Positions 2,492 to 13,900 of a DNA stretch of 64,000 bases are shown here, in pieces. Origin of the DNA: Candidatus Fermentibacterota bacterium (GTDB lineage Bacteria; JAFGKV01); the NCBI GenBank assembly GCA_030620115.1, contig JAUXFG010000001.1:9677-73676 (forward strand), read 5' to 3'. The translations under genes were made by a program, and so were the position numbers. Under the pieces are notes generated by a model that made no database searches, was not told the DNA's origin, and saw only the letters and a program-made list of their open reading frames with translations. The number at the start of each line of letters is the position of its first letter. Position 1 is the first letter of the stretch.

Positions 2492-4039
2492 TTACGCGTC
2501 CTCCTCGGATGAAGCGGGCTGTCGCTGTTGGAACTCCTTGGATCCTTTGAGCACTGAGAGCGCCACGGCGCCGAGCAGGACGAGAAGGAGCATTGCCCAG
2601 CCAAAGACGACTTCTTGGCTGCGGAGGCCGAAATCGCCATACGGGGCCTTGAGACGTTCGTGTATTTCAAAGGCGAGCATGAAAATGATGAATGCGGGGA
2701 TGATGAGCTGAATCCTGATGTCCCACCAGATGCCGATCTTTCCTTCAGAGCGTTCGTTGATGAAATGGCGCATTCGAGAAGCCCTGTAGTACCATCCCAC
2801 GATCAGGCATGTGCCAAGAACCACGAGTGGGAGGCCGAAGAAATTCATGAAATGATCAACGATATCGAGCCAGTGAATACCTGAACCCAACAAGTACGGC
2901 AGCCCCATGACCAACCCTACGCCTGCCACCGTGAGGTTTGCCCGGGCATGGGTGAAGCCGAACTTGTCCTTTATGGCAGCCGACATGGCTTCCACCAGGC
3001 TGAAGGCGGAATCAATGGCCAGAAGACTGAGCATGGTGAAGAAGAGCACTCCGAAGAGCTCCGGAAGGGGCAGGCCGTTGATGATTTCCGGATAAGTCAC
3101 GAATGTCAGGCCGGGGCCGGATTCTACCACTTGTGCCACGTCAACACCTTCGAGGAATGCCTTATGCCCCAGTGCGCCAAAGACCGCAAATCCGCCCACC
3201 ACGGCAGTCATGGCGTCGGCGATGCCGATGATCCATGCATTTTTCACAATGCATGTCCTGTCGTCCATAAAACTCCCATACGCAATCATTACCCCGAAGC
3301 CAACCGTGAGGCTGAAAAAGACCTGCGAGATGGCTGCGAGCCAGAGCTCATGGGCGCCTATTTGGCCGGCCCCGGGGTTTATGGTCCACAGCATGGACCA
3401 GTCTGGCGTAAGGTAGTATGAGAGGCCCTGCGAGGCCCCCTCGAGCGTGACGCCGCGAACGACGAATACGATGAGGAGAAGCCATGGACCGAGGACGGTG
3501 AACCAGACCACCTTTCCCACGGTCTTCGTCCCTTTCCAGATGGAGGCTACTATCCAGATCCACGCCACGAGAACACCAGCAAACAACGGCCACTTGAATG
3601 CACCGAGCTCCCACGGTTTCTGGGGATTGTTGGTTATCCCAAGGACTTCGTCGAAGAAGAATTCCCCGGGAGTGTTGCCCCACGAGAGCCCGAAGCTGTA
3701 GCAGAAGTAGTTGATGCAGTAGGACATAATGCCGGAGTAATAGGTGCAGATGATGAAGCCTGTTCCTACGGCAAACCAACCAAACCATTCGAGATTCTTA
3801 TGCACGCCGCGAAAGGCGCCCGGAGATGCATTGCTCATCTTTTTCCCAAGGGAGAACTCGAGCATGAGGAGCGGTATCCCCGCCACAAGAAGGCAGATTG
3901 CGTATGCTATGAGAAATGCCCCCCCACCATACTTGTAGCATACATAGGGAAACCGCCAGAGGTTACCCAACCCGATAGCGGAGCCGATTGATGCCAGGAC
4001 GAAAGCCGTCCTGCTTCCCCAGACATCACGAGCTGCCAT
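2492..4039 (-). CDS. neurotransmitter:sodium symporter (NSS/SNF, SLC6-like) family transporter
   Basis: Hallmark GLGNLWRFPY motif and a 12-TM architecture. The likely start is the internal Met (MAARDVWGS...) at 4039, which has a revcomp AGGAGGA RBS just upstream. The ORF track extends to 4141. Confidence 0.85.
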   Translation of the reverse strand: MAARDVWGSRTAFVLASIGSAIGLGNLWRFPYVCYKYGGGAFLIAYAICLLVAGIPLLMLEFSLGKKMSNASPGAFRGVHKNLEWFGWFAVGTGFIICTYYSGIMSYCINYFCYSFGLSWGNTPGEFFFDEVLGITNNPQKPWELGAFKWPLFAGVLVAWIWIVASIWKGTKTVGKVVWFTVLGPWLLLIVFVVRGVTLEGASQGLSYYLTPDWSMLWTINPGAGQIGAHELWLAAISQVFFSLTVGFGVMIAYGSFMDDRTCIVKNAWIIGIADAMTAVVGGFAVFGALGHKAFLEGVDVAQVVESGPGLTFVTYPEIINGLPLPELFGVLFFTMLSLLAIDSAFSLVEAMSAAIKDKFGFTHARANLTVAGVGLVMGLPYLLGSGIHWLDIVDHFMNFFGLPLVVLGTCLIVGWYYRASRMRHFINERSEGKIGIWWDIRIQLIIPAFIIFMLAFEIHERLKAPYGDFGLRSQEVVFGWAMLLLVLLGAVALSVLKGSKEFQQRQPASSEEDA

Positions 4040-4352: not shown

Positions 4353-4426
4353 CATGTCATCTACAAGAACCGGGCAACTCTGCTATTGACACATCTCCTG
4401 GAAGCCATATTCTGTTGCGCGTTCTC

Positions 4427-4503
4427 GGGGCGTAGCGCAGTTCGGTAGCGCACTGGCATGGGGGGCCAGTGGTCGCTGGTTCAAATCCAGTCGCCCCGAC
4501 CAG
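4427..4503 (+). tRNA. tRNA-Pro (anticodon GGG)
   Basis: Cloverleaf fits: acceptor CGGGGCG/CGCCCCG, D-arm GCGC-AGTTCGGTA-GCGC, anticodon stem CTGGC/GCCAG with loop AT-GGG-GG, T-arm GCTGG-TTCAAAT-CCAGT, and an encoded CCA. Confidence 0.85.
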
Positions 4504-6663: not shown

Positions 6664-6740
<77 letters not shown>

Positions 6741-8104: not shown

Positions 8105-8182
8105 GCCCCCGTAGCTCAGTCAGGATAGAGCACCGGTTTCCTAAACCGGGTGCCGCAAGTTCGAGTCTTGCCGGGGGCGCCA
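8105..8182 (+). tRNA. tRNA-Arg (anticodon CCT)
   Basis: Acceptor GCCCCCG/CGGGGGC, anticodon stem CCGGT/ACCGG with loop TT-CCT-AA, T-arm GCAAG-TTCGAGT-CTTGC, and an encoded CCA. Confidence 0.85.
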
Positions 8183-9962: not shown

Positions 9963-10040
9963 GGGCGATTAGCTCAGTTTGGTTAGAGCGCTTGCTCGAC
10001 ACGCAAGAGGCCACTGGTTCAAGTCCAGTATCGCCCACCA
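9963..10040 (+). tRNA. tRNA-Val (anticodon GAC); position 33 reads C rather than the usual U
   Basis: Acceptor GGGCGAT/ATCGCCC, D-arm GCTC-AGTTTGGTTA-GAGC, anticodon stem CTTGC/GCAAG with loop TC-GAC-AC, T-arm ACTGG-TTCAAGT-CCAGT, and an encoded CCA. Confidence 0.7.
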
Positions 10041-11373: not shown

Positions 11374-11697
11374 GTGGATCAACGTGATGCACCTCTGCTG
11401 GCAATACCGCTTGAGAAGTGGGAACAGTTGGAGGATTTGACTGCATCACTGAGAGCCATGTGTGCACGGCTCGTAATGGAGCAGAAGCAACTGAAAGGGC
11501 AGCTTGAGCGAACCATTGCGGAACTTGATCGCAAAAGGATCCTGAACGAGGAATTGGAAGAGAAGCGGCTGGAGGCCGATCATTTCCTCGCCCATAGAGA
11601 CAATATTCGGCAGAAACTGGATGGGCTGCTCTCACGACTGGATGTCCTAGAACTCCCCGAAGGAATCATGGCTATGCTCTCGGACAATGCATCGTAA
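11374..11697 (+). CDS. coiled-coil protein, possibly ZapB-like cell-division factor
   Basis: Heptad-rich E/L/K/R composition in a 107-aa protein lying immediately upstream of the zapA-like gene. Confidence 0.3.
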   Translation: MDQRDAPLLAIPLEKWEQLEDLTASLRAMCARLVMEQKQLKGQLERTIAELDRKRILNEELEEKRLEADHFLAHRDNIRQKLDGLLSRLDVLELPEGIMAMLSDNAS

Positions 11698-11706
11698 GGA
11701 AGAAGC

Positions 11707-12003
11707 ATGGGTGAACCAATAAAATTCGCGATGATGGGGCAGGAATATGTCATATCGGGGAATATAGAACCCAACTATATCGCTGAGCTTGCGAATTTTG
11801 TTGATAGAAGTACGAAGGAATTACGTGCAAAATCGAGTGGAATGTCGAGTGAAAGATTAGCAGTTCTTGCGGCGATGAATATCGCTGATGAGTTGTTTTC
11901 CTTAAGACAAGAGCTTGAGGAGGCAAAGGAGCGTGCTGGAAGTAGGGTCGATAGATTGATATCGGAGATGAGAGCCGATCTGGACGTGACGAGTGAAAAG
12001 TAG
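11707..12003 (+). CDS. zapA: cell division protein ZapA
   Basis: An IKFAMMGQEYVISGNIEPNYIAELANFVD start and a C-terminal coiled coil in a 98-aa protein. Confidence 0.6.
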   Translation: MGEPIKFAMMGQEYVISGNIEPNYIAELANFVDRSTKELRAKSSGMSSERLAVLAAMNIADELFSLRQELEEAKERAGSRVDRLISEMRADLDVTSEK

Positions 12004-12049
12004 AATAATCAGGCAAGATTATCATTTCAAATATCGGATTCACAAGGTC

Positions 12050-12235
12050 AAGAGTTCCCTGTCGTGTTTGTGAAGCTTGGGCATGTTTTGAGCCAACACT
12101 TGAACCGACGGGGTTCAACGTGGACACTTCTGAAAAGGCCCGCTCTCCGGGCATGGAGCGCTCTGCGGCGATCCCCACTTTTTGATTCAGGTTCAAGACA
12201 GACCCAACGCACGGCATTGATACGGGGGACTCTTT
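12050..12235 (+). ncRNA. candidate 6S RNA (SsrS)-like structured RNA
   Basis: A 275-bp non-coding gap after zapA, which is the classic ssrS position. An 11-bp closing helix GAGTTCCCTGT (12050-12060) pairs with ACGGGGGACTC (12222-12232) and is followed by a U-run. Confidence 0.3.
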
Positions 12236-12331
12236 TTTTTGCGCCCGTGGTTATGGGTTCTGGGCTGAATCACTCCTTTGGGAGCGCAGTCCCGGTACGA
12301 GCCCGACACCCGGGACATAGGGGAATCTCTG

Positions 12332-13900
12332 ATGATGGTGCATTACGGAATACTCGCAGCAGTGGCGGTGGTGTTGTCCTTCCTGGGCTTTCTGTTCGGG
12401 ATGTGGTGGAAGAGACTCAGCGACGAACGTCGTATGGCCAGCGTCAAGCAGCTGGCGGACAGGATTCTCGACGAAGCCCGCAGAGATGCGGAAGTACAAA
12501 AACGAGAAGCCGCCCTGGAGGCCAAGGATCGTTGGTATCAGGCCAAGTCGGCATTTGAGAGCGAAACAAAGGGGCGGCGCAAAGAGATAGAGACCCTCTC
12601 GAAGAAGCTTACTGAAAGAGAGTTCAATCTCGAACGCAAAGCTGATATCCTCAGCAAGAAGGAGCGCGAGTTTACCAATAGGGTGAAAGCCTTGTTGACG
12701 AAAGAGCGTGTCGTCAAACAGAAGGAGGAGAGACTCAGCGAGGTTCTTGCAGAGCAGAACCGTTGTCTTGAGCGCATTGCCGGCATGACCGAGTCTGAGG
12801 CAAAACGCCAGCTCATGGGGAACCTGGAAGAGGAGGCGAGAAAGACGGTTGCGCGAACGGTCAAGGCTATCAAGGATCGGGCCATTGAGACTGCGAACAA
12901 AGAGGCCAAGAAAATCATCAGCCTCGCCATACAGCGATGTGCCGCTGAGCACGTCACCGAGTCCACAGTGACCGTGGTAACTCTGCCATCCGACGAGATG
13001 AAGGGCAGAATTATTGGCCGAGAAGGCCGGAACATCAGAGCGTTCGAGACTGCAACCGGTGTGGACGTCGTGGTGGACGATACTCCAGAGGCGGTGGCCT
13101 TGTCCGCATTTGATCCAATCCGAAGGGAAGTCGCCAGGATTTCAATGGAACGACTCCTGGAGGACGGCCGCATCCATCCCACCAAGATCGAAGAAATCGT
13201 CAAGAAGGTCAGTCTGGAGATGGAAGAGAAGATTCGTGAGGCAGGGGAGCACGCTGCAATGGAGGTTGGCGTTCACGGGCTTCATCCCGAGCTCGTCCGT
13301 CTTCTTGGAAGATTGCGCTACCGCACGAGTTATGGTCAGAACGTACTAGTTCACTCCAAGGAGACGGCCATCATCGCCGGCATCATGGCCTCCGAGCTTG
13401 GGTTTGATGCGGCGCTCGCTCGGCGGGGGGGATTGCTCCACGACATCGGCAAAGCTTTGGATCACACTGTTGACGGGACCCATACGCAGATCGGCACCGA
13501 GTATGTGCAGAGGTACGGTGAGAATCCCGTGGTGGTGAACTGCGTTGCCGCCCACCATGAAGAGACGGATTTCGAGACCCCCATGGCGGTGCTCGTACAG
13601 GCGGCGGACGCCATCAGCGGGGCGAGGCCGGGCGCCCGGCGTGAGTTGTTGGAGACCTACGTGAAGCGTTTGGAGAAGCTCGAAGAGATCGGGGATTCCT
13701 TCGAAGGAGTCGAAAAGGCATACGCCATTCAGGCGGGAAGAGAAATCCGGGTCATTGTCTGCCATACCTTGATTGACGACGTCGGCGCAGAACAGCTGGC
13801 TTCATCCGTGGCACAAAAGATAGAGCAGCAAATGGAGTATCCCGGTCAGATCAAGATCACCGTCATCAGGGAAACCCGCGCGGTGGAATACGCTAGGTAA
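12332..13900 (+). CDS. rny: ribonuclease Y
   Basis: N-terminal TM helix, coiled-coil region, KH domain ([21 protein letters not shown]) and HD domain ([11 protein letters not shown]). The Met at 12332 follows a GGGGA RBS. Confidence 0.9.

Follow-up and report, generated by a model that had tools for sequence, protein, structure and literature searches.

The 64-kb window (the whole stretch of 64,000 nucleotides that was analyzed) encodes an infC-rpmI-rplT cluster that is followed by a coiled-coil ORF of 107 aa, by zapA and rny, and further downstream by xseA, xseB, and ispA, and it is the intergenic stretch between zapA and rny that houses, on the forward strand, the candidate 6S RNA (ssrS) gene described here (Table 1). 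The coiled-coil ORF finds no Pfam match at default settings and scores 13.2 bits (E 0.13) against the ZapB family PF06005, for which its orthologues on two related contigs (L167 and L168, see below) reach 27.5 to 28.2 bits (E ~3e-6) at a cutoff of 31.5; we refer to it as ZapB-like. Upstream of infC-rpmI-rplT, four tRNA genes on the forward strand (4426–4499, 6664–6737, 8105–8179, and 9963–10037) are interspersed with protein-coding genes, and the tRNA preceding infC is kept in relatives.

Table 1. Genes of the zapA–rny locus and parts of the candidate 6S RNA, with positions in the window.
Feature	Position	Strand	Remarks
ZapB-like ORF, 107 aa, coiled-coil	11374-11697	+	Between rplT and zapA; ZapB assignment sub-threshold
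zapA	11707-12003	+	Upstream neighbor; Pfam ZapA, E 4.3e-18
6S RNA (ssrS) gene, very probable, ~181 nt	12052-12232	+	RF00013 match, model R2, conservation boundaries
Closing stem, 5' strand GAGUUCCCUGU	12052-12062	+	Pairs with 12222-12232
Terminal arm, irregular middle, 5' strand	12064-12081	+	Consensus: 12064-12072 with 12210-12217, 12074-12080 with 12203-12209
Helix P2 ("downstream duplex"), 5' strand UGUUUUGAGCC	12084-12094	+	Pairs with 12190-12200; presumed continuation of product-RNA template
Central bubble, 5' strand AACACUUGAACCGAC, 15 nt	12095-12109	+	Unpaired in consensus; presumed product-RNA start
Inner (apical) arm, GGGG...CCCC, 67 nt	12110-12176	+	Folds alone as one unbranched hairpin
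Central bubble, 3' strand ACUUUUUGAUUCA, 13 nt	12177-12189	+	Unpaired in consensus
Helix P2, 3' strand GGUUCAAGACA	12190-12200	+	Includes predicted collapse-helix partner GGUUCAAG (12190-12197)
Terminal arm, irregular middle, 3' strand	12203-12217	+	Contains invariant CACGGCA, 12210-12216
Closing stem, 3' strand ACGGGGGACUC	12222-12232	+	Pairs with 12052-12062
U8 tract	12233-12240	+	Directly after closing stem; likely 3'-end or termination signal
rny (RNase Y)	12332-13900	+	Downstream neighbor; Pfam RNase_Y_N, KH, and HD domains

The extent of the gap depends on where rny begins. Its longest ORF starts with a TTG at 12278 and would give 540 aa, but the RNase Y in the database that is 100% identical has 521 aa and a conserved GGGGA Shine-Dalgarno-like motif precedes the ATG codons at 12332/12335, which together place the start there and not at the TTG. 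The zapA–rny gap therefore spans ca. 328 nt and 12278–12331 is non-coding leader, so that the 274 nt that follow from the coordinates in the earlier note, which assume the TTG start, were too few, though the candidate lies fully within the interval 12004–12277 that it had proposed. A similar correction seems due on one of the related contigs (L167, GCA_016928395.1), where the RNase Y start has been called at an ATT at position 2501 (2501–2518 region) and where the alignment suggests that the true start is the ATG at 2516, which follows GGGGAGUACAUC.

In a permissive scan, the Rfam 6S family (RF00013) matches 12053–12232 over the full length of the model (positions 1–187 of 187) with 43.0 bits, on the forward strand only, at an E-value of 1.7e-7 when the gap is searched by itself and of 2.4e-5 when all 64 kb of the window are. 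It is the sole non-tRNA match at E≤0.05 in the window, and no Rfam family besides 6S matches the gap at E≤10. The terminal arm and the flanks of the bubble are aligned at high posterior probability, while the inner arm is aligned poorly, at low posterior probability and with several non-canonical pairs. A default Rfam scan of the whole window at gathering thresholds lists four tRNAs and no 6S, because the candidate scores 3.4 bits less than the gathering score of 46.4 bits, an operational cutoff that marks no biological feature. We consequently dropped the silence of the default scan as a refutation; the Rfam search suggested in the earlier note thus comes out empty at the default threshold and yields a full-length match once the threshold is relaxed. 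The ends of the gene as given in Table 1 are the limits of conservation and of the closing stem, i.e., they are deduced from the sequence.

Relatives were sought through RNase Y. A search of species-representative genomes and metagenome contigs yielded nothing closer than 61% to 62% identity, but a large protein collection contains RNase Y relatives that are 76% to 85% identical, one of which carries the label Candidatus Fermentibacteria (FCB group). The contigs of eight such relatives (L161–L165 and L167–L169) all show the gene order rplT, ZapB-like, zapA, a gap of ca. 300 nt, rny, xseA, and xseB, and in each of the eight the zapA–rny gap gives a full-length 6S match with Rfam. Five of them score above the cutoff of 46.4 bits (70.8, 60.1, 58.8, 53.8, and 51.5 bits) and the three closest to the window score below it (44.5, 44.5, and 43.7 bits), which puts the window into a subgroup that narrowly misses the cutoff, in an otherwise passing clade. 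The more distant L082, from the set with 61% to 62% identity, also has the order zapA-6S-rny, with its 6S gene in the same slot at 76.7 bits, so that the orthologues in the zapA–rny slot spread continuously from 43.7 to 76.7 bits. Beyond this slot, above-cutoff 6S genes lie 1.5 to 4 kb upstream of rny at four Omnitrophota-like loci. The slot is not always occupied, as two further loci with RNase Y at 61% to 62% identity (L001, at 3811–3943, and L081, at ca. 2800–3000) have zapA directly before rny with a short gap, and neither Rfam at E≤1 nor our own covariance model (R2, see below) finds a 6S RNA in the available sequence of these loci; their ssrS must lie elsewhere or have been lost. No paper on 6S RNA in Fermentibacteria turned up in the literature search.

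Compared with the orthologues that pass the cutoff (L164, L165, L167, L168, L169, and L082; 177–183 nt), which share the slot and the invariant blocks described below, the window and its closest sisters (L161 and L162/L163) remain 2 to 3 bits under it, and the window differs in having an uninterrupted U8 instead of an interrupted T-tract, an A instead of a G at 12195, and a competing hairpin specific to its sequence. A blastn search with the gap against all loci gave marginal matches only, which means that sequence alone does not suffice to find these homologues. We therefore built a covariance model, R2, from six homologues that pass the Rfam cutoff, with the window and its sub-threshold sisters excluded. 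On the 64-kb window, R2 hits a single site, 12053–12232 on the forward strand, with 104 bits and an E-value of ca. 1.6e-26, and the 6S genes of the Omnitrophota-like loci are picked up as well, with 34 to 47 bits. R2 and the clade alignment A4 replaced an earlier covariance model (R1) that had been seeded with a MAFFT alignment whose 3' side was out of register, with degraded pair counts for helices 2 and 4.

The predicted RNA is a rod in which a closing stem, an irregular terminal arm, and helix P2 lead to an asymmetric bubble capped by an apical arm. The closing stem consists of 11 bp including two G.U pairs (U12056.G12228 and U12060.G12224), much as the earlier note had described it, with its 3' strand exactly where the note had put it and its 5' strand two positions further on (not at 12050–12060); it encloses 159 nt, close to the estimate of ca. 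160 nt, and the run of eight U residues noted there indeed follows directly. A proposed extension of this stem by CGTG/CACG is possible in the window as a pairing of 12063–12066 with 12210–12213, but the clade consensus adopts another register in which 12064–12067 pair with 12214–12217 and 12069–12072 with 12210–12213, leaving a bulge of 4 nt at 12218–12221. In the window's own best fold, the second helix of the terminal-arm middle lies one base out of the consensus register. The bubble opposes 15 nt to 13 nt between the flanks GAGCC/GGUUC and GGGG/CCCC, and the apical arm ends in the hairpin GCCCG-CUCUC-CGGGC at 12138–12152.

Just outside of the rod, the sequence GGTCA (12047–12051 in the window) directly precedes the first conserved base in five of the eight clade members (the window, L161, L162, L164, and L165) and may represent the context of a processing site or of a transcription start. 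In the fold, the first U residues of the U-tract are possible partners of the two A residues that precede the closing stem.

In an alignment of the whole gap, conservation begins sharply at 12052 and fades past the T-tract, and a T-rich tract occupies the position of the U8 in all eight clade members as well as in L082. Several blocks are invariant in eight of eight sequences: TTTTGAGCCAACACTTGAACCGA.GGGG (12086–12113), CCCCAC, GGTTC.AG, CACGGCA, and CGGGG. These cover the 5' bubble strand except for position 12109, while CCCCAC lies just 5' of the 3' bubble strand and extends into it. The 5' strand of P2 is likewise invariant across the clade, and the invariance of UGAgCCAACA extends to L082 and the Omnitrophota-like 6S genes. 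The inner arm presents the opposite picture, since it has an almost wholly different sequence in each relative yet retains the form of one unbranched irregular hairpin of 64 to 67 nt in the clade; folded alone, the unrelated inner-arm sequences of nine out of nine homologues (64–71 nt) each give a single unbranched hairpin.

RNAalifold on the clade alignment A4 returns a 6S rod of 56 consensus pairs in four helices with an open bubble and an apical arm, and 16 of these pairs are compensatory. Observed pairing and covariation clearly exceed those of controls in which the 3' partners were slid by 1 to 3 columns, with 93.3% of cells paired (39% to 53% in the slid controls), 16 pairs changed on both sides (4 to 8), and 38 cells changed on both sides (4 to 9), a contrast that is inflated because the rod was derived from A4, the same alignment that was used for the counts. 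None of 500 shuffles reaches the observed covariation score. In the closing stem, 97.9% of cells are paired, and covariation is seen at columns 4/182 (AU to GC) and 5/181 (GC to AU); the terminal-arm middle covaries at columns 15/168, 28/157, and 30/155 (the latter GC to AU), P2 (columns 35–45 with 141–151) has a pair that passes from GC over GU to AU (36/150), and six of the seven consensus pairs of helix 4, in the inner arm, are compensatory. The specific swaps at 4/182, 5/181, 30/155, and 36/150 are hard to explain without the rod.

The window sequence folds on the forward strand with -80.8 kcal/mol (z -3.5; none of 200 shuffles folds as well) and on the reverse strand with a z of only -1.5, while its inner arm alone reaches -27.6 kcal/mol (z -1.36), i.e., it is weakly more stable than shuffles. 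In six of eight sequences, the unconstrained minimum free energy (MFE) structure already corresponds to the canonical rod, its 5' bubble strand being open. The earlier note had looked to folding for a central bubble, and this expectation is borne out in part: In the window's unconstrained MFE the open bubble is absent and the 5' bubble strand is paired with the start of the inner arm, shut by a competing hairpin of 10 bp at 12097–12122 (CACUUGAACC/GGUUCAACGUG), but with the bubble strands alone forced open the canonical rod lies at -73.0 kcal/mol against -75.7 kcal/mol for the MFE. This difference of 2.7 kcal/mol is within the range of 1.8 to 4.2 kcal/mol that the open-bubble rod costs in the relatives. 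The competing hairpin was not found in any clade relative in the alignment, and it may either be neutral or reduce the share of molecules whose bubble is open. We dropped the bubble-less MFE as decisive evidence given that the hairpin is window-specific and that the open form comes at such a modest cost, and we also discarded a fold in which the window had been constrained to the clade register, since its cost of 11.7 kcal/mol was overstated. As a side note, the first bases of the inner arm in this genome are a near copy of the P2 3' strand, GGUUCAAG.

Five lines of evidence thus agree, i.e., the full-length RF00013 match, the orthologues in the same slot, the independent model R2, the covariation, and the position downstream of zapA, and we conclude with high confidence that, as the earlier note had proposed for this gap, 12052–12232 on the forward strand encodes a 6S RNA (SsrS), with a rod in the form of an open-promoter mimic. 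The gene is bona fide yet slightly divergent, and it adds one more member to an established family (RF00013).

Among other explanations, the most serious would be a structured 5' leader of rny, that is, a cis-acting attenuator in which the stem and U8 form a regulated terminator for RNase Y and no trans-acting RNA is made. Such an arrangement would suit an element that lies on the strand of rny, ca. 100 nt upstream of it, and runs into a U-tract, that is followed by a second covarying helix between this U-tract and the rny start codon, and whose order zapA-element-rny is shared by eight relatives and L082. It does not account for the full-length match to the 6S model or for homology to 6S genes that pass the cutoff, and a role as terminator leaves the invariant unpaired strands of the bubble unexplained. 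The Omnitrophota-like loci, moreover, have the homologous RNA two or three genes away from rny, indicating that its conservation is independent of adjacency to rny, and the element is missing from L001 and L081 although zapA and rny are neighbors there. We hence regard the leader explanation as very improbable, while a dual role, with a 6S RNA whose closing stem also terminates transcription, is possible.

It is less probable still that the element is simply the 3' UTR of zapA with an intrinsic terminator and a chance likeness to 6S RNA. It does begin 48 nt past the zapA stop codon (11–48 nt in relatives) and has U8 behind a GC-rich stem at its end, but an intrinsic terminator needs no more than a short hairpin and here 180 nt with four covarying helices and invariant single-stranded segments are conserved, the 6S match is significant, and a terminator scan does not flag the site. 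The least credible reading, which we consider extremely improbable, invokes a chance fold or a part of one of the three ORFs that exist mechanically across the element (12064–12558 on the forward strand, 164 aa; 11750–12217 and 12048–12212 on the reverse strand, 155 and 54 aa), against which stand the z of -3.5 on the forward strand only, an RNA-like pattern among relatives, whose inner arms differ by paired substitutions and by indels of 1 nt and 3 nt while other blocks are invariant at every codon position, the forward ORF running through rny out of frame, and the lack of any conserved reading frame with third-position variation among the relatives, so that both minus-strand and coding readings were rejected.

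The location of this 6S gene fits a theme known from beta- and gamma-proteobacteria, where ZapB, ZapA, and SsrS form an array in which ssrS often goes unannotated (PMC7641849), and it was the zapA-downstream position that the earlier note had rightly taken as typical. No single ssrS synteny holds for all bacteria, and the classic link is the one of ssrS and ygfA (PMC9130861). For the proteobacterial arrays, co-transcription with zapA and subsequent processing have been proposed (PMC7641849). In our clade, the spacer between the zapA stop codon and the 6S 5' end is short and no conserved sigma-70-like promoter was found in it across the relatives (one weak sigma-70-like site lies at 11981–12009 in the window), which suggests that the 6S RNA is either processed out of a joint transcript with zapA or driven by a promoter located within zapA. 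We tentatively hold the former to be probable, with the closing stem and U8 setting the 3' end of the RNA. The terminator scan passes over this stem and tract because the "loop" would be the whole RNA.

Characterized 6S RNAs accumulate in stationary phase, bind the RNA polymerase holoenzyme with the housekeeping sigma factor, and occupy it by mimicking an open promoter until copying of their 5' bubble and P2 5' strand into a product RNA frees them. By inference from this precedent, the gene in the window would be expressed, presumably in the mode and with the RNA ends described above, its RNA would bind RNA polymerase, and product RNAs would be synthesized from it. By analogy, the rod would sit in the active site of the housekeeping-sigma holoenzyme and sequester polymerase when nutrients are scarce. 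Once NTPs are back, a short product RNA, predicted as roughly 5'-GUGUUGGCUCAAAAC, would be copied by the polymerase from the 5' bubble strand and the helix strand next to it (ca. 12085–12099), and the invariance of 12086–12109 fits a joint role as template and as polymerase contact. Synthesis of the product RNA would unzip P2 and free its 3' strand GGUUCAAG (12190–12197), which is complementary to CUUGAACC (12099–12106) in the distal 5' bubble, so that unwinding of P2 is predicted to collapse the bubble and would thereby release the polymerase. When the presumed template was blocked in silico, the full collapse helix of 8 bp formed in eight of eight sequences.

Such a release mechanism would be of the type known from B. 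subtilis 6S-1 and A. aeolicus 6S RNA, whose freed P2 3' strand pairs with the distal 5' bubble in a collapse helix (PMC8876501). Like these RNAs, the clade has a distal 5' bubble, CUUGAACC, that is complementary to the P2 3' strand (GGUUCRAG), with collapse predicted in all eight members, and several relatives show in their MFE a small pre-formed hairpin in the 3' bubble strand like the one of B. subtilis 6S-1 (PMC8876501). Apart from this likeness, no sequence relationship to 6S-1 or the Aquifex RNA is detectable beyond the family model, the organisms belong to the FCB group versus the Firmicutes and Aquificae, the gene neighborhood is another, and the rearrangement in our clade is a folding prediction. 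Inspection by eye revealed no collapse complementarity in L082 and the Omnitrophota-like homologues.

In E. coli-type 6S RNAs, release is instead driven by an extended hairpin of 9 bp in the 3' bubble strand (PMC8876501), for which we saw no potential in the window by eye, its 3' bubble strand lacking any convincing hairpin. In other respects the RNA resembles E. coli SsrS (encoded in zapA-ssrS-ygfA and also covered by RF00013), as it has a similar length of ca. 180 nt, the same rod of closing arm, bubble, and apical arm, and an alignment over the full model, in line with the general description of 6S RNA as a rod of ca. 180 to 200 nt with terminal and apical arms broken by small loops and bulges (PMC8876501). 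The arrays are also alike in placing ssrS right after zapA and a ZapB or ZapB-like gene before it, but the downstream gene is rny and not ygfA, and the score of 43.0 bits falls short of 46.4. A 6S-like rod that binds RNA polymerase, as 6S RNA does, is also formed by the Ms1 RNA of Actinobacteria (PMC9130861), which however is a longer RNA found only in that group and has the core enzyme as its binding partner.

Our results describe a genuine ssrS in a poorly sampled candidate lineage that is allied to Candidatus Fermentibacteria; in a default Rfam scan, the gene falls 3.4 bits short of being reported. Routine annotation would probably overlook it, whereas synteny and a clade-specific model recover it unambiguously. 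The finding leaves the understanding of 6S RNA itself unchanged, but it extends the ZapB-like/ZapA-SsrS array known from beta- and gamma-proteobacteria to a lineage of the FCB group, which, together with the occurrence of 6S near rny in several candidate phyla, hints that the linkage of zapA and ssrS is old.

The leader of rny (12241–12331) contains a helix of its own that is conserved across the eight relatives, in which GC(U/C)CGG past the T-tract pairs with CCG(A/G)G. Its 3' strand sits just before the conserved Shine-Dalgarno-like motif CAU(A/G)GGGGA. Three pairs of this helix are compensatory, with variants such as GCUCGGA/UCCGAGC, CGGGGAA/UUUCCCG, and CUCGGGUC/GACCCGGG, and the 50 to 70 nt between the two strands are unconserved. 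RNAalifold additionally draws a weak pairing of the U-tract after the 6S RNA with the Shine-Dalgarno-like motif.

As a speculation that we consider unlikely, the ZapB-like gene, zapA, ssrS, and rny might form one conserved transcription unit in which the closing stem and U-tract act as a leaky terminator and the leader helix tunes the synthesis of RNase Y, so that maturation of the 6S RNA and RNase Y expression (or processing of a 6S precursor by RNase Y) would be coupled. If true, this would be an undescribed link from a global regulator of transcription to the main endonuclease of mRNA decay.

At the Omnitrophota-like loci, the genes follow on the same strand in the order 6S, (MgsA), an MTHFR C-terminal-like gene, a 5-formyl-THF cyclo-ligase of the ygfA family, and rny, an order reminiscent of the classic ssrS–ygfA pair. 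Examples are found at 262–3003 of L005, where the gene for the MgsA ATPase also lies in between, and at 2446–3961 of L012.
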